Position numbers and translations under genes: made by a program
NCBI GenBank assembly: GCA_963818245.1
Contig: CAWFSD010000003.1
Location: 99,860-163,859 of the forward strand
Length of the DNA: 64,000 nt
Reading direction: 5' to 3'
From: an uncultured Planctomycetota bacterium
GTDB lineage: Bacteria; Planctomycetota; UBA11346
The notes under the pieces: generated by a model
What the model was told of the DNA's origin: nothing
Seen by the model: only the letters and a program-made list of their open reading frames with translations
Database searches by the model: none
Shown here: in pieces, positions 8,852 to 54,580 of the stretch
How the letters are laid out: each line of letters begins with the position of its first letter
Numbering within the stretch: the first letter of the stretch is position 1

Positions 8852-8883
8852 TGCTCGGGGAGGGGGACGGATGGAACCGCCAG

Positions 8884-8993
8884 GACGCCAAGGCGCCAAG
8901 GGCCGGTGGTTCGAGGTGGAAGGCGCTGCTCATGACGCTCCTAGCGCACGTTCGCTCTGGCTGTCGAGCCTTGGCGCCTTGGCGCCTTGGCGG
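8884..8993. repeat. MITE-like element: arm gacgccaaggcgccaagg, about 65-bp core, inverted arm ccttggcgccttggcgccttggcgg (CGCCAAGG octamer units)
   Basis: Direct reading. Lies in the intergenic region upstream of the ECF sigma gene. Confidence 0.85.
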
Positions 8994-9031: not shown

Positions 9032-10108
9032 TTACGACGCGAACGCCAGGCGCGTCCAGGCGCCGCGGTCGGCCGAGCCGCGGCACGCCCACAGCTCGCG
9101 GCGCGCCGGCACCGTGACCATGCAGGCGTTGGTGCTGGTGCCCTGGCCGTCCTCGGCGAAGCGGTTGATCGAGTCGCTGCCGTCGGCGCGGTCGGCGAAC
9201 AGGCGCTGCAGGCTGGCGACGTCCTGACCACCGCCGTCCAGCAGCGCGCCGAGCCGCGCCAGGCGCGCGCGCGACGACGGGCTCGCCGGCTCGCCCTCGC
9301 GCGCGCGGTGGGCCTCGTCCAGGCAGTGGTTGGTGCGGTAGAGCGGGCGGTCCCCGGCGCGGTGCACCGCGCTGTCGGCGGTGCACTCCCAGTCGTCGAT
9401 CCCGCCCGCGTCCGCCGCCCAGTAGGTGTGCGCGGCCGCGCGCGGGCCACCGGTGAAGACCCGCCCGGCGGCGGCGCGGTCGCTTTCGCGCAGGGCGCGG
9501 TGCAGCAGCGACAGGTAGGGGATGCCCACGCGCGAACCGCGCGTCTTGATGTTGGTGGTGCCCACCGCCACGCCGTGCGCGTTCATGCCGATCAGCGACG
9601 GGCAGCCGGCGCAGGTGATGCTCCAGGTCTCGGGCCCGGCGCTCGGCCGGCGGTGCACCGCGACCACGAAGTCGAGGTCGCCGGGGTTCAGGTCCCAGCT
9701 CTGCGCGGCGTGCACCGCGCCGTCCGCCGCGTGCGTCGCCGGCACCAGCGCCGTCGAGCAGCCCTCCGCCTCGGCCGCGCGCGCCGGCAGCGCGAGGATG
9801 TCGCGGATGTCGGTCATGTTCGCGGTGGTGTAGAGATCGACCGCGTCGACGCCCGCGCCCGCCGCCAGCGCCTGGTGTTCGACCCAGCCCGCCTCGTCCC
9901 ACCCCTTGAGCGCCGCCAGGCACGCCGCGCCGAGCGCGCGGAAGGCCTGCTCATCGCGGATGCCGCGCTCGTACAGGTACGCGCGCGCCGCGCGCAGGCG
10001 CTGGCTCACGAAGTCCCCGATGCGCTCCTTGAGCTGCTCGCCCTGCCCCCGCCCGAGGGCCGCGGCATCGCCGGACACGTGGATCTGGGGGAGGTCGAGC
10101 AGCGGCAT
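9032..10108 (-). CDS. C45-family peptidase / acyl-CoA:6-aminopenicillanic-acid acyltransferase-like protein
   Basis: AAT-like fold with GCSTALV (N-terminal nucleophile Cys context). Possible starts are ATG 10108 or TTG 10141. The antisense ORF 8987..10153 is junk. Confidence 0.7.
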   Translation of the reverse strand: MPLLDLPQIHVSGDAAALGRGQGEQLKERIGDFVSQRLRAARAYLYERGIRDEQAFRALGAACLAALKGWDEAGWVEHQALAAGAGVDAVDLYTTANMTDIRDILALPARAAEAEGCSTALVPATHAADGAVHAAQSWDLNPGDLDFVVAVHRRPSAGPETWSITCAGCPSLIGMNAHGVAVGTTNIKTRGSRVGIPYLSLLHRALRESDRAAAGRVFTGGPRAAAHTYWAADAGGIDDWECTADSAVHRAGDRPLYRTNHCLDEAHRAREGEPASPSSRARLARLGALLDGGGQDVASLQRLFADRADGSDSINRFAEDGQGTSTNACMVTVPARRELWACRGSADRGAWTRLAFAS

Positions 10109-10173
10109 ACGTGGAGGGTACCGCGACCATGGCGGCAGCAAAGGGCCGGGTAAGCAGCGTTGCGCAGTGAAAG

Positions 10174-10412
10174 ACCTGGACCCTGGACCGTGGACACCTG
10201 GACCCTAGACCCTAGACCCTAGACATAGGGACGAGGTGATCAGTAGAGCCTCGACGCGGAACAGGGCATCGAAGATCGCGAAAGTGGATGCATTCCATCG
10301 GCGAAGTTTCAGACAACGCCATAAAAAGCAGGCAGTCCGCCTAGGGTCTAGGGTCTAGGGTCTCAGGGTCTAGGGTCTCAGGGTCTAGGGTCCAGGGTCC
10401 AGGGTCCAAGAA
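10174..10412. repeat. composite element: (GACCCTA)n array, about 105-bp lower-GC core, inverted (TAGGGTC)n array
   Basis: Direct reading: ctggaccctagaccctagaccctaga...core...ctagggtctagggtctagggtctcagggtctagggtc. Lies between the C45 and SnoaL genes. Confidence 0.9.
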
Positions 10413-10414: not shown

Positions 10415-10819
10415 CTACCCGATCTGCTTCAACCAATCCTGCACATTGTAATGATTGGTCACCCGCGTGATCGCCCCCGGCCGCATCTCGAAGAACGTCC
10501 CGCCATTCAGGGCGTAGGTCTGCCCGCGCGCCGGCGGCAGGCCCTCGTCGGTGGCCAGGTACTCGCCGCTGACGCGGTACTCGACGGCGGCGCGCTTGGC
10601 GTCCGAGGCGCAGACGATGACGATGTTGCTCAGGCGCTCGCGGTAGCAGCGCGCCATGCGCGCGAGGAAGGCGCGGAAGGCGTCGCGACCCACTTCGCGC
10701 GGGCCCTGGTTGAGGTCGTGGACGACGTCCTCGGCCAGCAGCGCGAGCAGCTCCTCCCACGCGCCGGCGTTGAACGCCTTGTAGTAGCCGCGGATGAGGT
10801 CGATGGCTCCGATGGTCAT
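10415..10819 (-). CDS. SnoaL-like/NTF2-like (ketosteroid isomerase fold) protein
   Basis: 134 aa, MTIGAIDLIRGYYKAFNAGAWEELLALLAEDVVHDLNQGP..., a typical SnoaL_2 pattern. Confidence 0.8.
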   Translation of the reverse strand: MTIGAIDLIRGYYKAFNAGAWEELLALLAEDVVHDLNQGPREVGRDAFRAFLARMARCYRERLSNIVIVCASDAKRAAVEYRVSGEYLATDEGLPPARGQTYALNGGTFFEMRPGAITRVTNHYNVQDWLKQIG

Positions 10820-12039: not shown

Positions 12040-12302
12040 GGCGAGGCGCGAGGCGCGAGGGACGAGGCGCGAGGCGCGAGGGACGAGGCGCGAGGCACGA
12101 GGCGCGAGGCGCGAGGCGCGAGGCGCGAGGCACGAGGCACCGCGCTCGGGTGCCTGGAATGTTTATAGACCCAAGCGCGAGGAGCCAGCCTTGGGCCATT
12201 GTGCCCGACGATGTCGCTTCACGTGTTCGGCCTATCCGCGCATGAACCGGATATCTAGGGTCTGGGTCCAGGGTCCAGGGACTCGGGGTCCGGGTCCAGG
12301 GA
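12040..12302. repeat. hybrid element: (GCGAGGC)n array, about 110-bp core, (TAGGGTC)-like array
   Basis: cgaggcgcgaggcgcgagggacgaggcg... about 14 units, then tctagggtctgggtccagggtccaggg. Lies between astA and the sigma-factor gene. Confidence 0.85.
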
Positions 12303-12634: not shown

Positions 12635-13484
12635 ATGAACGACGCGAGCACGCACAGCTCGATGCTGCGTCCGAGCGGGGCGAAGGCCGATCACGGCTGG
12701 CTCTACTACCAGAAGCCGGTGCGCAATTACCTGCGTGGCCTGGGCTGCGGGGACCAGGACGTCGATGACCTGACCCACGAGATCCTCATCAAGCTGCAGA
12801 CGTACATCGTCCTCAACTACAATCCCAGCCGGCCGTTCCGTCCGTATTTCAAGACCGCGATCCGGCACTTCTACTTCAGCCACCTGCGCGGGCGCGGCGG
12901 CCAGGGGGGCCGCCAGGTGGCGATGACGCCCGGCATCGCCGGGGCCGCCACCGCCGCCGAAGCCGAGGAGGATGAGAGCCAGGCCGGTGAGGACGTGCTC
13001 GCCGCCGGGCTGCTCGACTACGCCCGGCAGATGTACGACCACTTCGCCTCCGAGGCGGGATCCGCCCACGAGGTCGGCATCCAGAATGCTGCAGGCGTGG
13101 ATGCTCGGCGGGCTCAAGCAGGAGCAGCTCGCCACGCGCTGGAAGCTGACCGACCGCCAGGTGCGCACCCACATCGGCCGCGCCGCGGACGAGCTCGCGC
13201 GCTGGATGCAGGAGCGCCTGCACGCCGACGACCTGGCCGCCCTGGCCACCCTGGCCAAGGACAAGGGCGTGGTCCTGGATCTCGAGATGGCCGACATCCG
13301 CGGCCTGTTCAGCCACCTGTCGCGGCAGAAGCGCCTGCGTGCCCTGCTCATCCTCTCGCTCATCTACAAGCGCGAATCCGGATCCGCCGCCGGCACCCCG
13401 CTGACCGCCCTATCCGTGCTGGCTGTGCATGGATTGAGCGCTGGGCATCGCATTCGCCGGTTGAAGGACCGGCGGGTGGTCTAG
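12635..13484 (+). CDS. sigma-70 family RNA polymerase sigma factor (apparent frameshift near 13085)
   Basis: Region 2 (DVDDLTHEILIKLQTYIVLNYNPSRPFRPYFKTAIRHFYFSHLR) in frame 12392. Region 4 HTH (LKQEQLATRWKLTDRQVRTHIGRAADELARWMQERL) in frame 12972. The start could also be 12662. Confidence 0.6.
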
Positions 13485-17091: not shown

Positions 17092-17109
17092 GAGGGCGCT
17101 GCGCGCAGG

Positions 17110-17200
17110 CACAGGCGCGAGGCGCGAGGCGCGAGGCGCGACGGGCGAGTCACGAGTCACGACGCGCGAGGCACGAGACGCGACGCGCGAGGGACAGCCT
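17110..17200. repeat. (GCGAGGC)n-type heptamer array, degenerating
   Basis: gcgaggcgcgaggcgcgaggcgcgacgggcgagtcacgagtcacgacgcgcgaggcacgagacgcgacgcgcgaggg. Confidence 0.8.
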
Positions 17201-27280: not shown

Positions 27281-27552
27281 ACCTTGGACAGACCCTGGAC
27301 CCTGGACCCTGGGCCTGGGCCTGGGCCCTGGACCCTGGACCCTAGACCCTAGACCCTAGACCCTAGACCCTAGACCCTAGCCAGTCCGACCGGGTCGGAA
27401 GAGCGTCATCGCGAACGAGGGTCCGAATGCGTTCTTCGTGATGATTGAAAAGCCGCATGCGGTGATCCGGCCGACGACGCGCGCGGGCGACGCACCGGTA
27501 ACATGTCTAGGGTCTAGGGTCTAGGGTCTAGGGCCTCGCGCCTCGCGCCCCC
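27281..27552. repeat. composite element: (GACCCTR)n about 14 units, about 125-bp core, inverted (TCTAGGG)4 directly abutting (CCTCGCG)3
   Basis: Direct reading. Lies in the divergent region between the ABC-F gene and the nfu-like gene. Confidence 0.9.
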
Positions 27553-27593
27553 CGCCCGGGCGTGCAGAGCACGCCGGACTTCTCCCTGTCCCC

Positions 27594-28392
27594 ATGCGCC
27601 GGTTCTGGTACAAGTCCGACCGCAGGAGACCCGCCGTGTCCGCCCCCGTGCCCGCCCCCAGCGCAAAAGTCCTCGCCCGGCTCGCGGCCCTGCGCTTCGC
27701 CGGCGAGCTGACTGCGGCCGACGCGGCGGCGCAGGACTGCCGGCTGGTCGCGACCGAGCACGGGGCGCAGAGCGCGCCGGACCACATCGGCCTGACCCTG
27801 CTGCTCGACGCCGCGGGCATCGTGCGCGATGTGCGCTTCCGCTCGCCCGCGCAGGGCGCGCAGCTCGCCGCCTACGACGCGCTGGCCGAGCAGGCCGTCG
27901 GCCGCCTGCTGACCGACGCGGCGCGCCTGACGCCGCGCCAGATCGACGCGCTGCTGCGCGATGCCGGCGGCGGGCCGGTGCTCGACCTGGTCGCCACCAA
28001 CCACCCCGACGCCGACCACCCGTACTACGTGCTGCGCAAGGCCGCCGAGCGCGCGCTGAGCGTCGAACCCGAGACCCCGCCAGCCCGGTGCCAGCACCGC
28101 CGCTGCGCTGCCGTGGAGCGACATCGGCCTGTTCGAGAAGGTGCGGCGCATCGAGGGCGTGCTCGACACCCACGTGCGTCCGGCGCTGGCCAGCGACGGC
28201 GGCGGTCTGGACCTGGTCGACCTCAAGGACGACGACCTGTTCGTGCAGTACCACGGCGCCTGCGGCTCGTGCTCGTCCTCCATCGGCGGGACCCTGAACT
28301 TCATCCAGGACTCGCTGAACAACCACCTGCAGACCAGGCTGGCGGTGCGCGTCACCGAGGCGGGCGGCGGCGAGAGCATCGTCGGGCTCTAG
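27594..28392 (+). CDS. NifU/Nfu-like Fe-S cluster assembly protein (N-terminal domain of unknown function plus C-terminal Nfu domain; apparent frameshift near 28080)
   Basis: C-terminus (frame 28141) ...WSDIGLFEKVRRIEGVLDTHVRPALASDGGGLDLVDLKDDDLFVQYHGACGSCSSS carries the Nfu CxxC motif. The N-terminal domain is in frame 27594. Confidence 0.6.
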
Positions 28393-28461
28393 ACCCCAGA
28401 CCCCGGAGTGGTGTTCTCGGGTACGGAAGTGGAGAGGGGGCCGCAGGGCTCGTAAAGATCT

Positions 28462-28490
28462 CGGAACCGCGGTCTCGGGTCTCGGGTCCA
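28462..28490. repeat. short (GGTCTCG)3 heptamer tract (variant of the TAGGGTC family)
   Basis: cgcggtctcgggtctcgggtcc, upstream of cimA. Confidence 0.6.
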
Positions 28491-28513
28491 GCCCTAAACC
28501 ATCGGTATATCGA

Positions 28514-28709: not shown

Positions 28710-30351
28710 ATGAATCCTCCCGCCCCCAAGTCCCCTGCCACCGCTCTCGAGATCTACGACACCACGCTCCGCGACGGCTCGCAGGGCGAGGGCGTCAACC
28801 TCAGCCTGGCCGACAAGCTGGCGCTGACCGAGGCCCTCGACTGGCTGGGCGTCGCCTACATCGAAGGCGGCTGGCCCGGTTCGAACCCCAAGGACGAGGC
28901 CTACTTCGCCGAGGTCGGCAAGTTCACGCGCACGCACGCCAAGATCGCCGCCTTCGGCTCGACGCGCCGCGCCAAGTCGACCGCCGCGACCGATGACAAC
29001 CTCGGCAAGCTGGTCGCCTCCGGGGCCGACGTCATCACCATCTTCGGCAAGTCCTGGGACATGCAGGTGATCGAGGCCCTGCGCGTGCGCCTCGAGGACA
29101 ACCTCGAGATGATCGCCGACTCGGTCGCCTACCTGCGCCAGGCCACCGGCCGGCCGGTGTTCTACGACGCCGAGCACTTCTTCGACGGCTGGAAGGCCAA
29201 CCCCGGCTACGCCCTCGACACCGTCGCGGCCGCGTGGACGTCGGGCGCCAGCCGCCTGATCCTGTGCGACACCAACGGCGGCACCATGCCGCACGAGGTC
29301 ACCGCCGCGGTGGCCGCGGTGCGCGCGCGCCTGCCCGAGGCGGTCCTGGGCATCCACGTGCACAACGACGGCGGCCTGGCGGTGGCGAACACCCTGGCCG
29401 CGGTCGCGGCCGGCTGCACGCAGGTGCAGGGCACCATCAACGGCGTCGGCGAGCGCTGCGGCAACGTCGACCTGACCACGGTCATCGCCAACGCCGAGGT
29501 GAAGCTCGGCCACCGCTGCCTGCCCGCACGGCCACCTCCAGCGCCTGACCGAGCTCAGCCGCCTGGTGTGGGAGCGCATCAACCAGGTGGGCCCGGTGAA
29601 CCAGCCCTACGTCGGCCGCGCCGCCTTCGCCCACAAGGGCGGCGTGCACGTCAGCGCGGTGCAGCGCAACGCCCTGACCTACGAGCACGTGCCGCCCGAG
29701 ACCGTCGGCAACACCCGGCGCATCCTGATCAGCGAACTGGCCGGCCGCTCCAACGTCCAGGCCAAGCTCGCCAACCGCTACCCCAGCCTGAACGACCCGG
29801 GGGTCATCGCCAAGGTGCTGAACGAGGTCCAGGACCGCGAGAACGAGGGCTACAGCTACGAGGCCGCGGAGGCCAGCTTCGACCTGCTGGTGCGCCGCCA
29901 CGTCGGCGCCTGGCAGCCCGCGTTCGTCCTGCACCACTACCGCATCCACGGCCTCGGCACGCCAGGCGACGCCAAGGACCTGGTCGAGGCCACGGTCAAG
30001 CTCGACGTGCGCGGCCAGGTCCGGCTGTGCGTCGCCGAGGGCCACGGCCCGGTCGACGCGCTCAGCCACGCCCTGCGCGAGGCCCTGCTGCCGTCCTTCC
30101 CCCAGCTCCAGGAGCTGGCGCTGGTCGACTACAAGGTGCGCGTGGTCAACAGCGCCGACGGCACCGCCGCCAAGGTGCGCGTGTTCATCGAGCACCACAT
30201 CCACGGCCGTTCCTTCGGCACCGTCGGGGTGAGCGAGAACATCATCGAAGCGAGCTGGAAGGCGCTGGTCGAGGCCGTCGAGTACGGGCTGCTGAACGGC
30301 GGCGCGCCCGCCGAGGGCGGGAAGCCGGTCGTCGCGGTCGGGGCAGGGTAG
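28710..30351 (+). CDS. cimA: (R)-citramalate synthase / 2-isopropylmalate synthase family (apparent 1-bp frameshift near 29527)
   Basis: EIYDTTLRDGSQGEGVNLS, YIEGGWPGSNPKD, HVHNDGGLAVANTLAAV. The C-terminal LeuA-dimer-like domain is in frame 29566. The junction HRCLPA/GHLQRLTEL needs a 1-nt change. Confidence 0.8.
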
Positions 30352-30357: not shown

Positions 30358-30510
30358 GGCGCGAGGCGCGAGGCGCGAGGACCTGATTCGAGGTCTAATA
30401 AGTGAAACCCAGAACGGGCACAGTGGACCGGGTCCCAGGACCTCGTGCCTCGTGCCTCGTGCCTCGTGCCTCGTGCCTTGTGCCTCGTGCCTCGCGCCTC
30501 GCGCCTCCCC
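30358..30510. repeat. composite element: (GCGAGGC)3, about 60-bp lower-GC core, inverted (GCCTCGY)9
   Basis: gcgaggcgcgaggcgcgagg ... cctcgtgcctcgtgcctcgtgcctcgtgccttgtgcctcgtgcctcgcgcctcgcgcctc. Lies between cimA and the brx-like gene. Confidence 0.9.
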
Positions 30511-30587
30511 GTCGTCCAAACCGACCCCGGGTGCCCCTTGGTGGCATCCGGATGCGGCCCATGATCCCCTGACCACAAAGGAACCCC

Positions 30588-36225: not shown

Positions 36226-36305
36226 GGTGTCTTCCTGAAATGAAGTGTGTGTATGTGATTCGAGCGGCGGTCAGCCGTCAGCCGTCAGCCTGTCAGGCCG
36301 AGGCC

Positions 36306-38993: not shown

Positions 38994-39409
38994 GGCCAGC
39001 TCCACCGCCAAGCGTTCCTGGGCCGCGGCCGCTGGCGCCCGCGAGCGGGGCCCCAGCAGCCGGTCGATGGCGGCCACCGCGGTGGCCAGGCGTCGCGTGG
39101 TCACCGCTCAGGCGCACCACCGGCCGGTCGTGGGCGGCGAGCACGGCCTGGCAGCGCGCGGCGAACTCCGCGCGGCGGTGCGGCATGTCGCGCTGGCCGT
39201 CGGCGACCCACGGGGTCCCACTCCTGGCCGTTCGTCGGCAGGCCGAGGGCCCGTAGGCGCCCGGCCGCGGCGTCGAGATCGTCTTGCGTCCCGCACCACC
39301 ACCACAGCAGCGGAGCGGTGACCAGCGGCAGCCCGAAGGCGAGCGCCGCCAGCAGCCACCAGCCGCGCCGGCTGCAGCGCTGGGGCGGCGGTGGGCGGCG
39401 GCGCCTCGT

Positions 39410-40453
39410 TCACGGCGCCGCGGCCAGCTCCCGCGCCAGCGCGTGGTGCTTGGCGAACGCCGCCGCCACCTTCCCGCTCGTGAGCGCCGCGCGCGCGGCC
39501 GCGACACCCTGGCCGTCGCCGAGGATCGGCCGGCCGTGCCAGCAGTCGAGCGCGGCGCCGGCATTGACGCACACCAGGTCGAGCAGCGGGCCGCGCTCCT
39601 CGCCGGCGAGCAGGCGCCGGAACAGGTGCTTGTTGACCGGCGCGTCGCCGCCGGGCAGCTGGTCGTGGGTCAGGCCTGGCTGGTGGAAGTGCTCGGCGAT
39701 GCGGTGGTGGACGCGGCCGTCGTGCACCTCCCACAGGTGGCTGGGGCCGGAGATCGACAGCTCGTCGATGCCGGGGTGGCCGAGCACCACCACCGCGCGC
39801 TCGCTGCCCAGGCGCACCAGCGCCTCGGCGACCACGCGCGCGACCTGCTCATCGCTGACGCCGACGATCTGGCGGCGCGGGCGGAAGGGGTTGGCGAGCG
39901 GGCCGGCGAGGTTGAAGACGGTGCGCCGCACGTGCTGCGCGGCGAGCTTGCGCGCGGGCGCGACCGCGGCGACCGCCGGGTGCACCTGGCGCGCGAACAG
40001 GAAGCACACGCCGCTCTCGGCGTGCAGGCGCGCGAGGCGCTCGGGCGGCAGCTGGTAGGGCACCTCGAGCGCGTCGAGCAGGTCGAAGCCGCCGTTCGGC
40101 CGCGCGCTGCCGCGGTTGCCGTGCTTGGCCACCGGCACGCCCAGGGCGGCGAGCACGAAGGCCGCGGTGGTCGAGACGTTGAAGCGCGTCAGCCCGCTGC
40201 CGCCGGTGCCGCACAGGTCCATGCACGCCGGGCTGGCCGGGACCTGCGCGCGCGCCAGCAGGTTCCACACCACCGCCGCGAGCTCGACCGCGGTCTCGCC
40301 GCGGCGCGTCCAGGCGACCAGCAGGTCGGCGCCCTCCGCGGCCGCGAGTTCGCCGCTGATCAGCAGGTCGACGAGCGCGCCGGTCTCGGCCTCGCTCATC
40401 CCCGACGGGTTGAGGACCTGGCGCTGCATGGCGGTGAAGGCAGGGCTGGGCAT
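39410..40453 (-). CDS. trpD: anthranilate phosphoribosyltransferase family (TrpD/glycosyltransferase family 3)
   Basis: DLCGTGGSGLTRFNVSTTAAFVLAALGVPVAKHGNRG. Alternative start at 40429. Confidence 0.8.
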   Translation of the reverse strand: MPSPAFTAMQRQVLNPSGMSEAETGALVDLLISGELAAAEGADLLVAWTRRGETAVELAAVVWNLLARAQVPASPACMDLCGTGGSGLTRFNVSTTAAFVLAALGVPVAKHGNRGSARPNGGFDLLDALEVPYQLPPERLARLHAESGVCFLFARQVHPAVAAVAPARKLAAQHVRRTVFNLAGPLANPFRPRRQIVGVSDEQVARVVAEALVRLGSERAVVVLGHPGIDELSISGPSHLWEVHDGRVHHRIAEHFHQPGLTHDQLPGGDAPVNKHLFRRLLAGEERGPLLDLVCVNAGAALDCWHGRPILGDGQGVAAARAALTSGKVAAAFAKHHALARELAAAP

Positions 40454-40622
40454 GCCCCCGATCCTACGCACGCGGCCCATCCCGCCAAGGGGCGGGGGGA
40501 GGCAAATGGGGAGGATGCGAGTCGCGAGCTGCTCGCCACGAGGGGTGGATGGGCGCACCGCGTACGGGTCTCGAAGCCCGCAACCCGCAACTCGCAACCA
40601 TGCGAGTCCGGTATCCAGCCTG

Positions 40623-43214
40623 CTACTGCCGCGGTCGCCCCCGCGCCTGCGGCGGCGCCGTCAGCGGATCGTCCGGCCACGAGTGCTTGGGGTAGCGCGC
40701 GCGCAGGTCCTTGCGCACCTGCGGGTAGGTGTTGGCCCAGAACGAGGCCAGATCCTGGGTGATCTGCTCCACGCGGTAGTTCGGGGCGAGCAGGTGGAGG
40801 AGGATCGGGACGCGGCCGCGCGCCAGGCGCGGCGTCGCGGCCAGGCCGAACAGCTCCTGCAGGCGCACCGCCAGGATCGGGGCGCGCTCCTCGCCGTACT
40901 GGAGGCGGATGGCGTTGCCGGTCGGCACGGTGAAGCGCTCCGGAGCGTGCTCGGCCAGGGCCTGCTGCTGGGCGCGGTCGAGGCGCGCGGCGAGCCAGTC
41001 GAGCGCCGGCTTGGCCGCGACCTCGGCGCGCATGGTGCAGCCGGCGCACAGCTCGCGCACCAGCTCGGCGAGGTCGGCGTCGCCGAGTTCCGGCAGGCCC
41101 AGCTCAGGGAGCTCGCGGCGCAGCCAGGCGACGCGCGCCAGCCACGAGCGCAGCGCGAGCTGGGCCTCGTCCGCGCCGTCCTCGGGGCCGAGCAGCAGCG
41201 CGCGCGCCTGCGGGGCGAGCGCGTCGGCGAGCAGCGTCGAGGCGGCGGCGGCGTCACCGGGCTGGCCGGGCGCCTCGCGCACCGCGAGGTCGCGGTACAT
41301 CCAGCGGATGGCGCTGACCACGCGGCCGCGCTCGGGGTCGTAGGCCAGGCGTTCCTCGCGGCGCACGCCGCCGGGCAGGTCGGCCAGCCAGGCCTCCTCG
41401 ATCTCGGCGCCCTGGCGCATCAGCACCACCGGTTTTCCGCCGCGCACCAGCTCCTGCAGCTCGGTGGCGACCAGCAGCGGCGCGCGCTCCTGGCCCTTGG
41501 CGGCGTGCAGCGCCGAGCCACGGTCGATCTCGATCGCCACGCCGCCGGCCAGCGCCGCGCGGTTGGCGTCGCCGCTGGCCCGCCCGTCGCCGCTGCGCTT
41601 GGCGACGCGGTCGGGGTAGGCGGCGAGCAGCAGCCGGCAGATCAGGTCGGGGTCGGCGCTGCGCTCGCGGTCGGCCTGGCGCCAGCCGCCGCCCCACGCC
41701 GCCAGGATCTCATCGCGCGCCTGCACCACCTGCGCGCACGCGCCGGGGTCGATGCCCTGGCTGCGCAGGTGGCCGGCGAAGCGCGCCTTGACGGCGTCGG
41801 CGAGCAGCTCGAGGCGCTCGAGCGCGTCGCACGGCGCGGGGTCGGCCGGTGGCTCGTCGTGGCGCGGCGGCAGGCGCACGTCGCGTTCGCCGGCCAGCGC
41901 GGCGAGGGTGGCGCCGAGCTGCGGGCACTGCGCCTGCGCGGCGGCGTGCAGCAGGCGCCCGAGGCGCGGGTGCAGCGGCAGACCGGCGAGGCGCTCGCCG
42001 AGCTGGGTGAGTCCGGCGTACGGCGCGGTGAGCGCGCCGAGCAGGTGCAGCAGCTCCTCCGCGGCCGCCCCGCGCACCGCCTCGGGCGGGTCGAACCACG
42101 GGAAGGTGCGGGTGTCGGCGTAGCCCAGGCCCTTGAGCGCGAGGGTCACCGGCGCGAGGTCGACGCGGCGGATCTCCGGCGCGGTGGCGGCCTCGAGGCG
42201 GCCGTCGGCGAGCGGCGTCCACAGGCGGATGCAGCGCCCCGGCGCGGTGCGTCCGGCGCGGCCGGCGCGCTGGGCCGCGGACTGGCGGCTGATCATCTGC
42301 AGGCGCAGCTCGTCCAGGCCGGTGCCCGGGTCGTGGCGCAGCACGCGCGCCTGCCCGGAGTCGATCACCGTGCGCACGCCGGGGATGGTCACCGAAGTCT
42401 CGGCGACGTTGGTGGCGAGGACGATGCGCGGCCGCGGACCCGGCGACAGCGCGCGGTCCTGCTCCTCGGGCGGCAGCGCGCCGTGCAGGGGCAGGACGTC
42501 CACCCCCTGGACGGCCTCCAGCGCGCGCTGGCAGGCGCGGATCTCGCCCATGCCGGCGAGGAACACCAGGATGTCGCCGCACTCCGGGTCGAGGCGTGCC
42601 TGCGCCACGCAGCGCGCCACGGTGTCGCCGATGGCGAGGTCCTGCGCGCCCTGCCAATGGCTGGTGACGACCGGGAACGCCCGCCCGGGCGATTCGACCA
42701 CTGCGCACCCGCCGAGGAACTCGGCGACCGGCCGCGCGTCCATGGTCGCCGACATCACCACGATGACCAGGTCCTCGCGCACCGTGCGCTGCAGTTCGCG
42801 CAGGTAGGACAGCGCCAGGTCGGTGTGCAGGCTGCGCTCGTGGAACTCGTCGAGGATCACCACCCCGACGCCGTCCAGGTAGGGGTCGGCCTGGAGCTGG
42901 CGCGTCAGCGAGCCTTCGGTCATCACCCACAGCCGCGTCGCCGGCCCGCCGCTCTTCTCGAAGCGCACGCGGAAGCCGACCTCGCGCCCGAGCTGCCAGC
43001 CCTGCTCGTGCGCGATGCGCCGCGCCAGCGCCTTGGCAGCCAGCCGGCGCGGCTGCAGCAGGTAGACCTGCTTGCTCGACAGCCCGACCAGCAGCGGGGG
43101 CACGCGCGTGCTCTTGCCGGCGCCGGGCGGCGCCGTCAGCACCAGTGCCCGCCCCGCCGCCAGGGTGGCACGCAGCTCCGGCAGGATCTCGTCGATGGGC
43201 AGGGGGTCGGGCAC
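40623..43214 (-). CDS. hrpB: ATP-dependent RNA helicase HrpB
   Basis: DEAH box ILDEFHERS, Walker A PPGAGKST, SATMD, QRAGRAGR. Full-length HrpB C-terminal domain. Confidence 0.9.
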   Translation of the reverse strand: MPDPLPIDEILPELRATLAAGRALVLTAPPGAGKSTRVPPLLVGLSSKQVYLLQPRRLAAKALARRIAHEQGWQLGREVGFRVRFEKSGGPATRLWVMTEGSLTRQLQADPYLDGVGVVILDEFHERSLHTDLALSYLRELQRTVREDLVIVVMSATMDARPVAEFLGGCAVVESPGRAFPVVTSHWQGAQDLAIGDTVARCVAQARLDPECGDILVFLAGMGEIRACQRALEAVQGVDVLPLHGALPPEEQDRALSPGPRPRIVLATNVAETSVTIPGVRTVIDSGQARVLRHDPGTGLDELRLQMISRQSAAQRAGRAGRTAPGRCIRLWTPLADGRLEAATAPEIRRVDLAPVTLALKGLGYADTRTFPWFDPPEAVRGAAAEELLHLLGALTAPYAGLTQLGERLAGLPLHPRLGRLLHAAAQAQCPQLGATLAALAGERDVRLPPRHDEPPADPAPCDALERLELLADAVKARFAGHLRSQGIDPGACAQVVQARDEILAAWGGGWRQADRERSADPDLICRLLLAAYPDRVAKRSGDGRASGDANRAALAGGVAIEIDRGSALHAAKGQERAPLLVATELQELVRGGKPVVLMRQGAEIEEAWLADLPGGVRREERLAYDPERGRVVSAIRWMYRDLAVREAPGQPGDAAAASTLLADALAPQARALLLGPEDGADEAQLALRSWLARVAWLRRELPELGLPELGDADLAELVRELCAGCTMRAEVAAKPALDWLAARLDRAQQQALAEHAPERFTVPTGNAIRLQYGEERAPILAVRLQELFGLAATPRLARGRVPILLHLLAPNYRVEQITQDLASFWANTYPQVRKDLRARYPKHSWPDDPLTAPPQARGRPRQ

Positions 43215-43249
43215 GGGGGCGGGATGTTCGGGGTGCGCCGGCGCTGTGC

Positions 43250-43400
43250 TAGACCTTAGATTTGAGACCCTAGACCCTAGACCCTAGACCCTAGACCCTA
43301 GACCCTAGACCCTAGGAAACCGGCTGCGCCTCAGGAGTCGTGCAGCGTCGCGTGCGTTGGCCGCGAGGAGCCGGGCGGAGGGCTGTCGCCAGGGTCCAGG
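43250..43400. repeat. composite element: (GACCCTA)9, about 65-bp core, degenerate inverted (CAGGGTC)2
   Basis: gagaccctagaccctagaccctagaccctagaccctagaccctagaccctagg ... ccagggtccagggtctg. Lies between hrpB and aroG. Confidence 0.85.
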
Positions 43401-43472
43401 GTCTGCCCCGCAGGGCGCGCGGAACTCGCGCTTGGCACCCGCGAAATCCCCCGGATCGTCCCACCCACCCCC

Positions 43473-44508
<1,036 letters not shown>

Positions 44509-44537
<29 letters not shown>

Positions 44538-45390
44538 CGGCCTCGTCCCCCGGCTCCTCCGCGGCCATCACCTCCACGCCGTCCTCGAGGCGCAGGAACC
44601 ACGGCGTCATCAGCCGGTTCCGGGGCTGACGCAGGTGGGGATGCGGCGACGTGGGGGGAATGAGGTCGTCGACGTCCTTCGCATCGACGCGCAGGAAGGC
44701 CCAGCGCAGGGGTGGTACCCGCGTTCCGTCGCGGCGCGCGGTCTCCAGCCAGTGGGGCATGCCTCCACGGCAATGCGCGCACGTGCTCCGGTAGCAGCAG
44801 ATCACCCAGCGTCCGTGGTGCCAGGCCTCCGGCAGGGCGGCGATGAGGTCCAGGTCGGCGCTGGTCGTTGGGGCGCGGGCTCCGGTCGTGGGCCTGCTGG
44901 CGGTCGCTACCGCCAGCCAGCCCACCAGCATGGCCGACACCAGGGCCGCCAGCAGCGCGCCGTGACGGGGATGAGAACGATGGGCCGGCCGGGGCGGCGG
45001 CCGCAGCACCCAGAAGGCGGCCGCGTAGAGCACGTCGGCCGCTGCGGCGGCCCAGGGTGGCACCGTCAGCTCACCGAAGCACCCGCAACTCGTAGCGCCG
45101 CTGATGGCCGCTGCCGTGGCGAGCAGGGCGAAGGCGCAGAAGGTGGCCCTGGCCGCCACCCACACGTGAACCGACCAGGAGGCCAGCAGCAACCCGACAG
45201 CCAGCGTGGTCTCCCACGTCAGGGCAGCGACGCCCACACTGGTCGGCAGGGCCCATCCCGCGAAGACCGGCTGCCCGGTGTGCAGCCAGACGCCGGTTTT
45301 GGCCACTGCGGCCGCGAGCAGCATGCCAGCCGCGGTGATTGCGAGGAGCGCCGGCAGGAGGTGGGAGATGGGAGGGTAGAGGGTGCGCAT
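44509..45390 (-). CDS. MauE/DoxX-like membrane domain fused to a thioredoxin-like CxxC domain
   Basis: TM helices with the SCGCFG motif (MauE-like). C-terminus has CCYRSTCAHCRGGMPHW, a redoxin CxxC. Convergent 29-bp overlap with aroG. Confidence 0.6.
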
Positions 45391-45493
45391 CGCCTCGAAT
45401 CCTGCACCAGGGATGAGCGGTGCCGATCCGGACCCGGCCGCGGCTGGTGGGTTTGATCGACATCCAGAAGACGGGAGCGCAGAGGCGAGGGCT

Positions 45494-46560
45494 TCAGAAG
45501 CCCGATGGTGCGGCCACCGCGGGCGCCGCTTCCGAGGCGCGCCCGGAGGCGGGTCCGACCGTAGCGTAGAAGGGAATGCGCAGGATGCCGCCATCCGTGA
45601 AGGTGACATCGAAGTGCCCCGGAGCGGGGGCGATGGGGCTGGCGCCGGTGAAGCGGGTCTCGAGGTGCTGCGTCCCATCCTCCTCGAGCAGCTGGCACGT
45701 CGCCCGTTCGGGATCGCTGGAGACGATCCGCACCACCTGGGCTCGCGCCGTACCGGAACGGGCCCGCAATTGCAGGGTCTTGTGCGCTTCGCCATCCACC
45801 GGCACGACCCCGAAGAGCGCTCCAGCCGGTTTCGCCTCCCATGGTCCTGGCACGGTCCAGCGGACCGGGGCACTCGGCTGGTGTGGTCCCAGGTGCGCCC
45901 CGCCTCGCTGAAGGAGACAACCAGGCGCGCGGTCATGACTCCGCTGACGCGGGTCGGCTTCGCGGTGAACGCGATGTCCAGGAATCCGCGTCACGGCTGC
46001 CACCGCGGCGACCAGCAGAATCCTCGCCGCCGACCAGCGCGGCAGTGATCGCATCGAAGTGGCCGGGGTGGGACCCCGTCGCAGGATGACCGGACGCGGC
46101 CTCGCCGGATGCCGAGCCGGTCGATCACCCAGGTCGATGAGCCTGCCACGTGGCCACAGCAGGTGCTCGCTGACGTGGGCCTCCAACTCGCAGTGGACGT
46201 GCGCCTCGTGGCCGTCCTCGTCGCCGATGATGGTGAATTCGCTGCCGATCTCGCCCGCCAACTCACCGGCATAGAAGGTGACTTGAGCACGCGCTCCTGG
46301 CCCGCGCCGATGACCTCGTCCGGCAAAGGGTCGACGCGCACGCAACTGCAGGTGCGGCGGACCCGATGGGTCGGAAGCTGTGTCCGGAGGGGATGGTGAA
46401 CGGAACGTCGAGTGCCCGGTACTCCCCCGGGTAGAGCGCCATGACGGGCGGGTGGATGTCGACCAGGGCGCCGATTCCGCCGCGGCGGTGAGGTGGCCGG
46501 CGCACATGACCAGCAGAACGATGGTGCGCAGACGGCAGTGCTCGCGGCGAGGGCGATCGC
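45494..46560 (-). pseudogene. secreted-protein gene disrupted by multiple frame changes
   Basis: The signal peptide (MTPSREPGRDRPRREHCRLRTIVLLVMCAGHLTAAA) is in one frame. Plausible segments (GIGALVDIHPPVMALYPGEYRALDVPFTIPSG; VTFYAGELAGEIGSEFTIIGDEDGHEAHVHCELEAH; ...ATCQLLEEDGTQHLETRFTGA...HFDVTFTDGGILRIPFYATVGP) are scattered over all three minus-strand frames. Confidence 0.35.
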
Positions 46561-46581
46561 GGCCGGGTTCACGGGATGGTG

Positions 46582-47565
46582 TCATTTGCCGCCCTCCCCG
46601 TTGGCGTCCTTCTGCAGGGGCACCAACCCGCCATTCACGGCGAAATCGTTGATGGTGCGCACGTGGGTGGGATCGATCTCGAATTCGCTGTCGTCGATCG
46701 GGATGCCGAGGTGCACAGCGGTCACCGTCTGCGTGCTTACGGCGACCTCCTTGCCCCATTCCGTGGTCACCGCCTGGGACGGCAGGGGATAGGGTCCGCT
46801 GCCATCGGCCGCCGTCACCAGGCGGTACGTGATGCGCTCCCGCAGCATCGGCGCCTGGTCCACCCAGCCCCAGTGGATCTCAGCGATGAGCCGGACCCCG
46901 CCGAACTCCGGAAATGGGCGGATCAGGTAGCGCGCCTCGGCGTTCTGCAGCGCCTCGACGAACTCGTTCTCACCGACCTTCTTGGCGCTGGTCTGGGGAA
47001 CGTGCAGGATGGTGGTGCCGTCGGCACCGTGTTCGACGGTGGCGAGCGAGGTGGTGAGGTGCGCCTTCACCCAGTCGGGGTCCAGCAGCTGGTCCCATCC
47101 CAGGGTCAGCGAGTTCGTCGCGTGGTGGTCGTGGTAGGCGAGGAACGAGAAGAGTTGGAGCGACAGCGGGCACGGCATGAAGCCAGAGTAGGGGATTTCC
47201 GAGTAGACGGGGTATCCCGGACCCTTGTGCATGAGGAAGAGGTCGGTCTTGCCCTCGAGGTATTGCCAGCCGTCGTTGTTGGCGACGTAGACCAGGGAAT
47301 CGACCTTATGGCCGGGATTCGTGCCCTCCCAGCGGATCACCCGGAATTTCGCGCCCTTCATGTGGTAGCTGATGCCATAGCGCGTCCCCGCTGCGACATC
47401 CTCCGCCATGTCCTCCTCGAAACTCGCGCTGGAGATGTGGGCATAGATCCTGAGCTGATCGGCGAAGATGGCCGGGTCGGCGGGCTCCTGGGCGCCCGGC
47501 AGTTCCAGGCGGGCGGTGGTGCTCAGCAGCACCAGCAGGATCACCGTCGAGGCGCGTCGTATCAT
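46582..47565 (-). CDS. secreted hypothetical protein (lower-GC gene)
   Basis: Signal peptide MIRRASTVILLVLLSTTARLELPGA. 327 aa with coding-like composition. Confidence 0.6.
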   Translation of the reverse strand: MIRRASTVILLVLLSTTARLELPGAQEPADPAIFADQLRIYAHISSASFEEDMAEDVAAGTRYGISYHMKGAKFRVIRWEGTNPGHKVDSLVYVANNDGWQYLEGKTDLFLMHKGPGYPVYSEIPYSGFMPCPLSLQLFSFLAYHDHHATNSLTLGWDQLLDPDWVKAHLTTSLATVEHGADGTTILHVPQTSAKKVGENEFVEALQNAEARYLIRPFPEFGGVRLIAEIHWGWVDQAPMLRERITYRLVTAADGSGPYPLPSQAVTTEWGKEVAVSTQTVTAVHLGIPIDDSEFEIDPTHVRTINDFAVNGGLVPLQKDANGEGGK

Positions 47566-47682
47566 GGCCGTGGTCCTGGTCGGTTAGGGAATCATGGTGA
47601 TGGGCTGTCGGGGTTCAGGCGGTCCGTGGTGCGCACGCACCACGGACACGCGAACTCACCGGTTATGCGTGGTTTCCATCCT

Positions 47683-48189
47683 TCAGCCCTTGGGCAGGAT
47701 GGGCGGAGGCGTCGGAACCCCGTAGACCGGGGCGCAGTCATTGTCCATGAAGTGGTAGCCGCACGGCTGCGGGATCATGGGCTTCTCGTAGGGATCGGGC
47801 TGGCCGGTCGTCGGATCGATGTAGTAGGGGTTGGGGATCATGGGCACGACCCATGGGGCGGTGGCATTCAGGCGCTTTTTGATGCCGCCGCACTTGCGCG
47901 GGTTGGCGGTGTACTTGCCGGCTGTGCCCGGGGGGTAGGACGGCCGGATCTGCGGGCTTTCATTGGCGTCGACCGCGTTGACGAACATGACCGCCGGCGG
48001 CTGCATGCCGCGGACCGGCTGCACGTACTGGGCTGCGCAGATGTAGTTGCCATCGTAGAGCCCGTTGTCCGGGTTCTTCATGGTGAAGTTCATGCAGTAG
48101 GACTTGTCCCAGCAGACGTTGGCCGCTGAAAGGGAGATGGAGAACAGCGTGAGCAGTGCTCCGGCGCTGGCGATCCTGGTGATGGGCAT
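47683..48189 (-). CDS. small secreted Cys/Pro-rich hypothetical protein
   Basis: Start MPITRIASAGALLTLFSISLSAANVCW is a signal peptide. GGAAGG 9 nt upstream. 8 Cys. Confidence 0.5.
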   Translation of the reverse strand: MPITRIASAGALLTLFSISLSAANVCWDKSYCMNFTMKNPDNGLYDGNYICAAQYVQPVRGMQPPAVMFVNAVDANESPQIRPSYPPGTAGKYTANPRKCGGIKKRLNATAPWVVPMIPNPYYIDPTTGQPDPYEKPMIPQPCGYHFMDNDCAPVYGVPTPPPILPKG

Positions 48190-48306
48190 GGGAAACCTTC
48201 CGTGGTGATGGCCGGAGGCCGATGAGCGCTCGCGTGAGCGCACGGGATGCCGCATCCGCCGCCGGTGGTCACCGGCTATGGGAACGGATGGGCAAGGAGG
48301 ACAATC

Positions 48307-48329
48307 AGTATTCGCATTCTGCGAATACT
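48307..48329. promoter_or_regulatory. palindromic operator-like site AGTATTCGCA-ttc-TGCGAATACT, about 120 bp upstream of the secreted small-protein gene
   Basis: 10-bp perfect arms. AT-rich in a GC-rich genome. Confidence 0.45.
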
Positions 48330-48540
48330 CCGATGGTGGAGTATGGCGATGCGATGTCAACCTGGCAGGGCGAAGATGGTCCGATCAGGCGCGCAGAGGA
48401 TCGTGGCCGGGTGCGCGGAAGCGGCGCCATGGGGACACGCGACGTCCAGCACAGGCTGCGCATCCAGCGAACCGGCGGCAGCGACGCAGCGCGACCCGTG
48501 ACGAGACGCGTGGTTACGAGAGCCATAGTGAAAACGTCCA

Positions 48541-48561
48541 GTATTCGCCTGGTGCGAATAC
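48541..48561. promoter_or_regulatory. second copy of the GTATTCGC-N5-GCGAATAC dyad
   Basis: Same half-site as 48307-48329, 210 bp away. Confidence 0.45.
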
Positions 48562-48681
48562 GTGAATGTCGCCTCCAGCCGGCTGCTGTCAATGTGGCGG
48601 CAAAACCTCCAGGCGCGGACCTGGTTTCCGCACCGGTCGCGCCGGGGAAGGGTCAGCTCCGGAGCGGGTCCCCAGCCACGC

Positions 48682-50814: not shown

Positions 50815-50915
50815 GGGGTCCTCGCAGGGGCGCGCAGCCGCGCACGCCGCTCGCACGGGTGCCGGCACGCAGGGGGGATCGGGGGCGATGCCTCCGGCCG
50901 CGGCCGGGCCGCGCT

Positions 50916-51158
50916 TCAGGCCCCGGCCGGCACGCCGCCCGTGGTCTGCAGCATGGCGAGCACGGTGCGCCGCGCGGTGACGCGGTCGACCCAGTGGCGG
51001 TTCTGGATCTTGGCGATGAGCAGGTCGATGCGCTGCTGGGTCTCGCTGAGATCGAGGACGGTCAGGCGCGGGCACTGCTTGCGCAGTTTCGGCAGGAGCT
51101 GCTGCCACTGGTCATCGGGGATGGTGAGCATGGGCTTCCAGGGTTCGCGGAAGCGCAT
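50916..51158 (-). CDS. small hypothetical protein
   Basis: 80 aa ORF with a plausible composition (MLTIPDDQWQQLLPKLRKQ...). Family unclear. Confidence 0.4.
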   Translation of the reverse strand: MRFREPWKPMLTIPDDQWQQLLPKLRKQCPRLTVLDLSETQQRIDLLIAKIQNRHWVDRVTARRTVLAMLQTTGGVPAGA

Positions 51159-51200
51159 CCTAAAGGCCGTGGGCGCGGGTCCAGCGGCGCCTCCGTTGCA

Positions 51201-51400
51201 GACCCTGGATCCTAGACCCTAGACCCTAGACCCTAGACCCTAGACCCTAGATCGATGCCCAGGGTCTCGGGTCATTGAAAAGGAACAAACTGCGCCTTGG
51301 TCCGGTATCTAGGGTCTCGGGTCTAGGGTCTAGGGTCTACCGTCGATCTAGGGTCTCGGGTCTCGGGTCTCGCGGTCTGCTCCCAGGGTCCCCATTGCCC
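51201..51400. repeat. composite element: (CCTAGAC)7, about 58-bp core, inverted (TAGGGTC/TCGGGTC)n
   Basis: Direct reading. Lies between the small gene 50916..51158 and the HIT gene. Confidence 0.9.
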
Positions 51401-51419
51401 ATACGGCCTTCCCCCGACG

Positions 51420-51851
51420 ATGCCCCCCATGCCCAGCCTCTTCACCCGCATCATCGCCGGCGCCATCCCGGCGCAGTTCGTCTTCCAGGAGGCGCAGTGG
51501 GTCGCCTTCCTCGACATCAACCCGACCGCGCCGGGGCACGCCCTGCTGGTGCCGCGCCTCGAGGTGCAGCACCTCGGCGAGCTGCCGCCGGACCTGCAGG
51601 CGGGGTTCGGTGTCCACCTGGTCCGCCTGATCGCGGCCGTCAAGCGCGCCAGCGGCGCGCCGGCGGCCAACGTCCTGATCAATGACGGGCCGGCTGCCAA
51701 CCAGGCCATCCCCCACGTCCACGCCCACGTCGTCCCGCGCTTCCCTGGCGATGGGAAGGTGGTGCACCCCCACGGCGCGCCCTACGCCGACGCGGCCGAG
51801 GCGCAGGCCTGGGGCGACAAGCTGCGCGCGGCGTGGGCGGCTGGCGGCTGA
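51420..51851 (+). CDS. HIT-family (histidine triad) nucleotide hydrolase
   Basis: HVHAHVVPR histidine triad. NPTAPGHALLVPR. Confidence 0.8.
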   Translation: MPPMPSLFTRIIAGAIPAQFVFQEAQWVAFLDINPTAPGHALLVPRLEVQHLGELPPDLQAGFGVHLVRLIAAVKRASGAPAANVLINDGPAANQAIPHVHAHVVPRFPGDGKVVHPHGAPYADAAEAQAWGDKLRAAWAAGG

Positions 51852-51852
51852 C

Positions 51853-52152
51853 GTGGCCTTCGACCTGGCCGCCTTCCAGGCGCACATCGCCGCCACCTAC
51901 GGCGCCAAGGACGCACAGCGCGGCAGCGCCGGCACCTTCATGTACCTGATGGAGGAGGTCGGCGAGCTCGCCGAGGCCCTGCGCGAGCCGCAGCGCCACG
52001 ACCTGCCCGGCGAGTTCGCCGACTGCCTGGCGTGGCTGACCTCGCTCGCCCACCTCGCCGGCGTCGACCTCGCCGCCGCCACCGCCGCGAAGTACCCCGG
52101 CGTCTGCCTGCGCTGCGGGGTGACGCCGTGCGCCTGCGCCTCGAAGCCATGA
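51853..52152 (+). CDS. MazG-like nucleotide pyrophosphohydrolase-domain protein
   Basis: GTG start overlapping the HIT stop (TGACGTG). LMEEVGELAEAL is the EEVGEL MazG motif. Confidence 0.55.
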   Translation: MAFDLAAFQAHIAATYGAKDAQRGSAGTFMYLMEEVGELAEALREPQRHDLPGEFADCLAWLTSLAHLAGVDLAAATAAKYPGVCLRCGVTPCACASKP

Positions 52153-52180
52153 CCAGGATCACACCGGGGACCTTGATTTT

Positions 52181-54573: not shown

Positions 54574-54580
54574 GGGCGTG

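Follow-up and report, generated by a model that had tools for sequence, protein, structure and literature searches.

How do tandem repeats of one fixed unit length come to stand in mirrored pairs between the genes of a bacterial chromosome, and are the resulting elements mobile, regulatory or simply tolerated? The question is raised by a 64,000-nt stretch from an uncultured Planctomycetota bacterium (contig CAWFSD010000003.1; the whole stretch is called the window below), whose intergenic spacers carry arrays of 7-bp units, most of them facing an inverted counterpart across a short unique core. A mechanical scan of the window returned 11 long tracts of period 7, one of period 8 and none of periods 4–6 or 9–12, and Tandem Repeats Finder (TRF) concurred for the period-7 tracts. 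In 100 first-order Markov simulations of the window, the number of long period-7 tracts was zero. The 11 tracts resolve into nine sites, numbered 1–9 along the 64,000 nt, all of which are non-coding spacers as judged from frame plots of third-position GC content (GC3) and Pfam checks of the flanking genes. By a rough count, array-bearing spacers make up about one-third of the roughly 25 larger spacers that look truly non-coding.

All of the tandem-heptamer sites listed in an initial annotation made from the letters alone were present, and the architecture it described was borne out: tandem-heptamer arms in inverted orientation enclose unique cores of 56–123 bp with a lower GC content (mostly 54–63%, compared with about 72% for the window), and the G-rich strand changes sides across the core. 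Inverted pairs around a unique core were clear at seven of the nine sites, or eight if the weak site 9 is included. Three tracts had been taken to be solo; this holds for 17101–17192, whereas the tract at 28462 has a short left partner at 28389–28405 and that at 58725 a weak right partner at 58775–58800. Arms range from 17 to 101 bp and also vary in unit type, and arrays contain 2–14 units, with exactly four only at 27505–27533. Polarity was strict at 9/9 sites, the left arm being of the GACCCTA or GCGAGGC type and the right arm of the TAGGGTC or GCCTCGC type. The sites are as follows.

Site 1, left arm, 10174–10224: GACCCTG-like units on the gene side, three GACCCTA on the core side; 33–66 nt upstream of the start of the gene at 9032–10141 (− strand)
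Site 1, core, 10225–10340: unique, 116 bp, 54% GC
Site 1, right arm, 10341–10412: (TCTAGGG/TCTCAGGG)x7, then TCCAGGG units; 3 nt separate its end from the stop of the SnoaL-like gene at 10415–10819 (− strand)
Site 2, left arm, 12041–12141: GCGAGGC/GCGAGGG/ACGAGGC, ~14 units (TRF count), derived type; upstream of astA (− strand)
Site 2, core, 12142–12255: unique
Site 2, right arm, 12256–12302: one TAGGGTC, then CAGGGTC-type units; hybrid partner that does not pair with the left arm
Site 3, solo array, 17101–17192: ~13 derived units (GCGAGGC, GAGACGC, GAGTCAC); begins 10 nt past the stop at 17091
Site 4, left arm, 27281–27381: ~14 units, GACCCTG and GGCCTG on the gene side and six GACCCTA at the core; 44–59 nt upstream of the ABC-F start (− strand)
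Site 4, core, 27382–27504: unique, 123 bp, 63% GC
Site 4, right arm, 27505–27552: (TCTAGGG)x4, then (CCTCGCG)x2; 42 nt upstream of the nifU-like start at 27594 (+ strand)
Site 5, small pair, 28389–28492: TAGACCC CAGACCC (28389–28405), a 63-bp core, then GGTCTCG GGTCTCG GGTCCAG; the first TAG of the left arm is the stop codon of the nifU-like gene (28390–28392)
Site 6, left arm, 30358–30380: (GCGAGGC)x3; begins 7 nt past the leuA-like stop at 30351
Site 6, core, 30381–30440: unique, 60 bp, 55% GC
Site 6, right arm, 30441–30510: (CCTCGTG)x7, then (CCTCGCG)x2; 78 nt upstream of the start at 30588 (+ strand)
Site 7, left arm, 43249–43315: (GACCCTA)x7; 35 nt upstream of the hrpB start at 43214 (− strand)
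Site 7, core, 43316–43388: first 23 nt conserved in the relative L054, whole core mostly alike
Site 7, right arm, 43389–43405: CCAGGGT CCAGGGT; 68 nt upstream of the start of the 3-deoxy-D-arabino-heptulosonate 7-phosphate (DAHP) synthase gene
Site 8, left arm, 51200–51251: (GACCCTA)x5 plus two degenerate gene-side units; upstream of the M3 peptidase gene (− strand)
Site 8, core, 51252–51307: unique, 56 bp, 55% GC
Site 8, right arm, 51308–51378: TCTAGGG and TCTCGGG units, the last being TCTCGCG; 42 nt upstream of the HIT start at 51420 (+ strand)
Site 9, weak pair between convergent genes, 58725–58800: (GCGAGGC)x3 immediately past the stop at 58724; a short core and GGCGTCT GGTGTCT (58775–58800) follow

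A single unit series and its polar gradient

Read outward from the core, the units form a series of single substitutions, from TCTAGGG through TCCAGGG or TCTCGGG to TCTCGCG, CCTCGCG and finally CCTCGTG. Intermediate units were found inside single arms (51308–51378 and 27505–27552), and also in a sister species, where an arm consists of (GAGACGC)5–6 followed by (GACCCTA)3. The GCGAGGC/GCCTCGC tracts are descendants of the TCTAGGG/GACCCTA unit, and all arrays belong to one family; (GACCCTA) and (GCGAGGC), which had been treated as separate units, are instead two ends of one mutational series. The hybrids reported earlier are real, with GCGAGGC on the left and TAGGGTC on the right at 12041–12302 and TCTAGGG directly abutting CCTCGCG at 27505–27552, and because a single substitution series underlies them, they always keep identical polarity.

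The series is ordered along each arm. In 12 of 13 arrays the distal, gene-side half was more diverged than the proximal half, and none of 5000 within-array permutations reached the observed sum. Canonical TCTAGGG adjoins the core, and towards the genes the units are derived and mostly richer in GC, giving a visible age gradient that starts with the canonical unit beside the core and ends with decayed ones beside the genes. Four of the seven unit positions stayed constant through all variants (G1, G3, C5 and T6 of GxGxCTx). The commonest decay step was CTAGG to CCAGG (10379–10412, 12264–12302, 27281–27340, 43389–43405), which destroys the CTAG tetranucleotide and is the change expected under a very-short-patch-type repair bias or under general AT-to-GC pressure.

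The cores show no such kinship. When they were compared with one another we found no homology, and only short k-mers were common to them, some of which came from repeat units. The shared ATTGAAAAG to which attention had been drawn does exist, and it carries no weight because it is one of 14 9-mers common to the cores, compared with 5.5 ± 4.7 in shuffles.

A second family with the same architecture as the heptamer elements had been overlooked. Its 8-bp unit CGCCAAGG has eight matches in the window, whereas 0.26 would be expected by chance, and it builds two elements:

8-bp-unit element 1, 8878–8992: (CGCCAAGG)x3, a 66-bp unique core, then (CCTTGGCG)x3
8-bp-unit element 2, 52184–52312: (CGCCAAGG)x3, a unique core, then (CCGTGGCG/TCTTGGCG)x3

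The arms of both begin with AACCGCCA and end with TGGCGGTT; the two cores are unrelated. Spacers of the window also hold small solo 7-bp arrays of other units, namely (GTCAGCC)x3.7 at 36270–36296 and (TCGCTTC)x2.7 followed by (CGCTGTC)x2.6 at 53318–53350.

Gene context, folding and the orthologous site

The gene content of the window (GC 70–77%) is ordinary for a chromosome, and the neighbours of the arrays are housekeeping genes encoding ABC-F, NifU-like, LeuA-like, DAHP synthase, HrpB, M3 peptidase, HIT and AstA proteins. No array lies inside an open reading frame (ORF), and none of the neighbours is a surface or virulence gene, which argues against the contingency loci considered in the initial annotation. 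The flanking genes are divergent at four sites, co-directional at another four and convergent at one, the weak site. Next to stop codons, arrays approach to within 0–10 nt (stop/array positions 30351/30358, 58724/58725, 17091/17101 and 10415/10412), and the stop ending at 28392 falls inside a unit. On the start-codon side they are 33–93 nt away, several of them at 35–44 nt. Since arms this close to start codons leave too little room for a promoter with a leader of normal length, the most likely position of the promoters is within the core or array, and transcription would then include the arms. Consistently, there was no TANNNT box between start codons and the arms lying 35–44 nt off. We also considered TAGGGT itself as an outward-facing −10 box (TANNNT); leader lengths fit, but there is no period-compatible −35 or extended −10 element, and the box would point inward in lineages whose pairs start with the G-rich arm (see below). 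Several of the start codons are preceded by C-runs (CCCC ATG) and not by a Shine–Dalgarno sequence (27584–27593, 43463–43472, 43215–43223 on the − strand, 30578–30587 and 51410–51419), as is also the case at 5518–5527 of L054 and in the Planctomycetota loci L048, L080 and L092.

Inverted arms can pair, and sites with like arms are predicted to fold into very stable hairpins: the score is z = −10.4 for the RNA of site 1 as a whole, z = −6.0 for the DNA of site 4 and z = −5.8 for the RNA of site 6. The hybrid site 2 does not fold (z = −0.18), so arm pairing is not required; it is a frequent consequence of the architecture. A cruciform or hairpin as the universal form of the elements was ruled out by these non-pairing hybrid arms. 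Searched against Rfam with gathering thresholds, the window as a whole gave no match, and thus no known RNA family in the cores. As for the proposed G-quadruplex (G4) potential, (TCTAGGG)4 does fit the formal motif G3N4G3N4G3N4G3, judged on sequence alone. The derived CCTCGCG and CCTCGTG units have no G tract and no such motif, and arrays of derived units nevertheless persist and reach 13–14 units. The persistence of CCTCGCG arrays rules out G4 formation as a universal requirement.

One site could be compared with a relative. L054 (contig JBBQSO010000093.1), a Planctomycetota metagenome-assembled genome (MAG) contig, shows ∼90% DNA identity to 39217–44530 and 48682–50086 of the window, and appears from this sequence match to represent a sister species of the window organism. 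Its HrpB/DAHP-synthase spacer holds the site 7 element at the same place, with arms in register and of nearly equal length and with the core in the same orientation. The five distal units of the left arm read TAGACCC in the window and GAGACGC in L054, whose left arm consists of (GAGACGC)x5–6 plus (GACCCTA)x3; its right arm, (TCTAGGG)x3 plus degenerate units, differs from that of the window in units and copy number. Because the site is occupied in L054 and the core edge is conserved, site 7 shows vertical inheritance with turnover of the arrays in place, not insertion. The suggestion that the elements are MITEs (miniature inverted-repeat transposons) with microsatellites as terminal inverted repeats (TIRs) therefore fails on three counts, namely unrelated cores, arms of 17–101 bp with mixed unit types, and an occupied orthologous site in a ∼90% identical relative. 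The copies share no interior, and no presence/absence polymorphism was seen at the one comparable orthologous site. The outer edges of the arms are degenerate, and no flanking direct repeats were evident by eye (no formal test for target-site duplications was made).

In a homologue search with the ABC-F protein, the next-best relative was 63% identical and the named matches were mostly Planctomycetota MAGs; a metagenome scan for the orthologous DAHP-synthase start gave no match. The alignment with L054 also showed that a 4.1-kb segment of the window (44538–48681) is absent from this contig, which joins 44530 directly to 48682. The segment has a lower GC content (0.665 at 46–48 kb), weak coding signal, no Pfam match for two ORFs and no heptamer arrays, and is probably a recent insertion.

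Occurrence in other genomes and known repeat classes

Scanning one genome per species for (GACCCTA)3 returned at least 104 stretches. Among the matches listed are Aliivibrio, Vibrio, Photobacterium and Shewanella, two Methanomassiliicoccales archaea, and MAGs of Polyangiales, Gemmatimonadales, Planctomycetota, Omnitrophota, Hydrogenedentota, Acidobacteriota, Bacteroidota, Armatimonadota and Chloroflexota. At the high-GC loci among them, four units was the mode (46 of 89 arrays). The listed matches include 21 inverted pairs, 20 of which have the G-rich arm 5′, the reverse of the window, where the C-rich arm is 5′. C-rich-first pairs among the matches listed occurred only in the sister MAG (L021, L054, L064, L099) and in one other Planctomycetota MAG (L048). 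Neighbouring genes, as given by crude gene calls, were convergent for 6, co-directional for 12 and divergent for 1 of the listed G-first pairs, compared with 5 divergent and 1 convergent for C-first pairs. The 5/1 versus 1/6 table gives a Fisher's exact p of about 0.03 by hand; before L099 was added, the 4/1 versus 1/6 table gave p = 0.07. One rule fits both polarities: for the gene next to an arm, the sense strand tends to be the G-rich one.

Genomes with GACCCTA arrays often hold several unrelated heptamers, some of them in inverted pairs. In a Blastocatellia MAG (L093; 1296–1436 and 6350–6496), Snuella (L042) and Shewanella (L003), ACTGAGG, AATTGAG, AATACTG and other units occur paired or solo. 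This co-occurrence suggests a heptamer process that is independent of the unit. The Polyangiales MAG JBKJQC01 carries nested, onion-like palindromes (L033 7690–7907; L039 461–707; L094 4001–4195; L100 5916–6085), whose outer arms are stereotyped, (TCTAGGG)4 followed by the conserved inner flank GGGTCCGAGACGAG, and whose cores are nested inverted arrays of other heptamers (GAGAGTC, CAGTCGT, TCTCGTC). A metagenome scan for C-first pairs gave a single match (L105, 100–340 of contig Ga0209555_10121644), rich in TTTAGGG/TTCAGGG with an inverted TCTAGGG pair, which is probably eukaryotic, plant-type subtelomeric DNA rather than a bacterial element. In IMG/VR, ten viral contigs (L106–L115) contain (GACCCTA)3 or longer, one of them being a giant-virus MAG.

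The belief that the repeats belong to no described class was wrong, since repeats of this kind are already known. Rehm et al. (2015; PMC4692102) described intergenic GGGAATC heptamers in Xanthomonas and a GGGGAYT unit in Nostoc, together the G3N4 class. In Xanthomonas, four units are preferred, there are about 186 arrays in 5 Mb and 70–75 close inverted pairs per genome, array position is conserved and length variable between species, and the repeats formed G4 in vitro, with no function identified (PMC4692102). The arrays of the window resemble this class in having a 7-bp unit with a G3 tract (TCTAGGG, TCCAGGG, TCTCGGG), in being intergenic and close to housekeeping genes, in forming close inverted pairs, and in differing in length between related species while retaining their position. 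They differ in the unit TCTAGGG, in array lengths of 2–14 units without a mode at four, in the polar decay series, and in density, which at about 9 sites in 64 kb is much higher. Orientation also differs. Xanthomonas heptamers are under-represented between divergent ORFs, and past a stop codon their G-rich strand is the sense strand, whereas ahead of a start it is antisense (PMC4692102). This rule applies to 20 of the 21 pairs listed from other taxa; in the window and the sister MAG it is reversed, the C-rich arm is 5′, and 4/9 sites lie between divergent genes. We found no follow-up in the literature explaining the Xanthomonas repeats, and a literature search for the window repeat as 14-mers found nothing, whereas 7-mers led to a variable-number tandem repeat (VNTR) of Vibrio cholerae and to nucleomorph telomeres.

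The V. cholerae repeat is the hypervariable locus VC0437, which is (GACCCTA)n and is used in multiple-locus VNTR analysis typing (PMC6905556). Its unit is identical to that of the window and its copy number varies through slippage, but the array stands alone in the genome of a low-GC gammaproteobacterium and belongs to no genome-wide paired family. (TCTAGGG)n is likewise identical to the nucleomorph telomere repeat of chlorarachniophytes (PMC4494063), a closer match than the plant telomere repeat to which the unit had been compared. Nucleomorph repeats are terminal on linear chromosomes and made by telomerase; because the window arrays are internal and flanked by bacterial genes, in addition to being paired and inverted, the match is a coincidence of sequence. 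Short tandemly repeated repetitive (STRR) sequences of cyanobacteria and the TAACTGA heptamers of Beggiatoaceae are also intergenic tandem heptamers near starts, with a unit shared across distant phyla without a known transfer mechanism. TAACTGA is common to Beggiatoaceae, cyanobacteria and Bacteroidetes, with 169 direct sets and one indirect set (MacGregor 2015; PMC4679880), and both groups differ from the window in their units and in being almost always direct, unpaired arrays.

Repetitive extragenic palindromic (REP) sequences, bacterial interspersed mosaic elements (BIMEs) and REPINs, in which two inverted REPs enclose a short spacer, are likewise inverted repeats, extragenic and abundant, and can form hairpins at transcript ends. 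REP units are imperfect palindromes of 20–40 bp with a GTAG or CGTC head and are copied by a REP-associated tyrosine transposase (RAYT), whereas the window units are non-palindromic tandem 7-mers in variable number around unique cores. MITEs have terminal inverted repeats around a short non-coding interior and many copies; the window elements lack a shared interior and a fixed TIR. What is new here, then, is the unit and the phylum that carries it, the very dense occurrence of sites, the reversal of pair polarity and the frequency with which sites fall between divergent genes, together with the decay series that joins two apparent families, the polar gradient and the parallel 8-bp family.

Origin and possible effects of the arrays

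As to what the elements are, we are confident that they are microsatellites of the G3N4 class and not mobile DNA. For the full account, the balance tips towards slippage-driven heptamer microsatellites whose orientation is constrained by transcription and which have a modest structural effect; the functional part of this account, taken by itself, is tentative. Arrays would arise and change by slipped-strand mispairing. Turnover and growth, or else selection, would be concentrated at the core-proximal end, and older units would decay under AT-to-GC pressure. Transcribed arms would give the flanking genes G-rich 5′ leaders and, past their stop codons, C-rich trailers, and if arms are transcribed, their orientation is constrained by transcription, with the G-rich strand as the sense strand of the adjacent gene. 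A structural effect could come from a G-quadruplex that forms either on the non-template strand or within the leader, and in co-directional spacers with like arms a long hairpin could separate transcription units; any effect on expression or transcript separation would be modest. Recombination substrates and regulatory tracts in promoters, two further roles suggested at the outset, are possible.

Several observations weigh against this account. Plain slippage alone explains neither the canonical units next to the core nor the uniform polarity. G4 formation is no general requirement, since arrays made only of CCTCGCG/CCTCGTG cannot form it, yet persist and expand. A sigma-70 and terminator scan of 43000–59000 (sites 7–9) found neither a promoter-like site nor a terminator in the cores, although such a scan does not cover planctomycete promoters. 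The relation between neighbour orientation and polarity comes from crude gene calls and small numbers, and the orthologous comparison from a single comparable site (site 7, n = 1).

The first alternative is expansion without function, in which 7–8-bp repeats spontaneously fill dispensable spacer DNA, and polarity and position show only which placements do harm. The arrays abut stops and halt short of starts, units incapable of forming G4 still reach 13–14 copies, copy number and unit type differ between related species, and the explanation cited by Rehm et al. (PMC4692102) for the excess of heptamers is polymerase slippage. Uniform polarity and canonical units at the core do not follow from it, nor do the four-unit mode in other phyla (among the matches listed here and in Rehm et al. 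2015) and the retention of the element at the orthologous site 7, and we regard it as unlikely. Mrazek and colleagues reportedly proposed such expansion in a 2007 PNAS article, putting the abundance of 5–11-bp repeats in free-living bacteria down to a general tendency to expand. Heptamers are the one over-represented microsatellite length in many free-living bacteria, and the lineage of the window is an unusually dense and ordered case, in which the question of junk or function becomes specific: turnover at the core edge, orientation following transcription, and the effect of a G-rich leader on expression.

Alternatively, a sequence-specific DNA- or RNA-binding protein could recognize the heptamer, with mirrored arrays recruiting the binder, for example in promoter insulation or looping, and selection keeping the proximal units canonical. 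All variants retain four of the seven unit positions, polarity is strict at 9/9 sites with canonical units at the core, arm pairing is unnecessary, the TCTAGGG heptamer recurs in many phyla, and 3 × 7 bp would correspond to two helical turns. We nevertheless hold this reading to be rather improbable: no candidate protein came to light, arrays of decayed units still persist and expand, and the presence of several unrelated units per genome (L003, L042, L093) together with the 8-bp family in the window argues for a process that depends on unit length and not on one recognition sequence.

The gradient could also reflect a polar process anchored at the core, in which new TCTAGGG units are added only at the core boundary and older units are pushed towards the genes, where they decay. 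We give this little credence. Such addition would resemble the growth of CRISPR arrays at their leader-proximal end or the polar turnover of minisatellites beside a hotspot. If true, a repeat-adding activity, either dedicated or coupled to transcription, would have to work on both sides of spacers that bear promoters, and the recurrence of 7-bp units across bacterial phyla might be explained.

An inversion switch, in which recombination between the inverted arms flips the core and its promoter between two divergent genes, is very improbable. Inverted arms of 30–100 bp around cores of 56–123 bp and the 4/9 sites between divergent genes would suit it, but the core is not flipped in L054 relative to the window, co-directional genes flank four sites, the arms of hybrids lack homology to each other, and there is no invertase gene nearby. 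Finally, MITE- or REPIN-like mobile DNA with microsatellite terminal inverted repeats has the least in its favour and is, for the window, close to refuted: the inverted-repeat architecture, the many copies and the stereotyped Polyangiales arms of four units plus GGGTCCGAGACGAG, which resemble module copying, are countered by unrelated window cores, by arms that vary in length and unit type and include hybrids, by the occupied site 7 in the ∼90% identical relative with its conserved core edge, and by flanking genes among which no transposase or RAYT gene was noticed (of the window, the flanking genes examined were covered, not an exhaustive scan).

On the practical side, arrays of this kind break short-read assemblies, and their TAG stops in all frames at gene ends affect the annotation of MAGs. 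Some housekeeping genes of the window are split over two frames with their Pfam domains continuing, namely the leuA-like gene (28710–29558 and 29566–30351) and the nifU-like gene (27594–∼28030 and 28141–28392). A sigma-70-like gene is also frame-split (12635–∼13000 and 12972–13484), as is perhaps the N-terminus of the M3 peptidase (50916–51158). These split reading frames are either assembly indel errors or pseudogenes.

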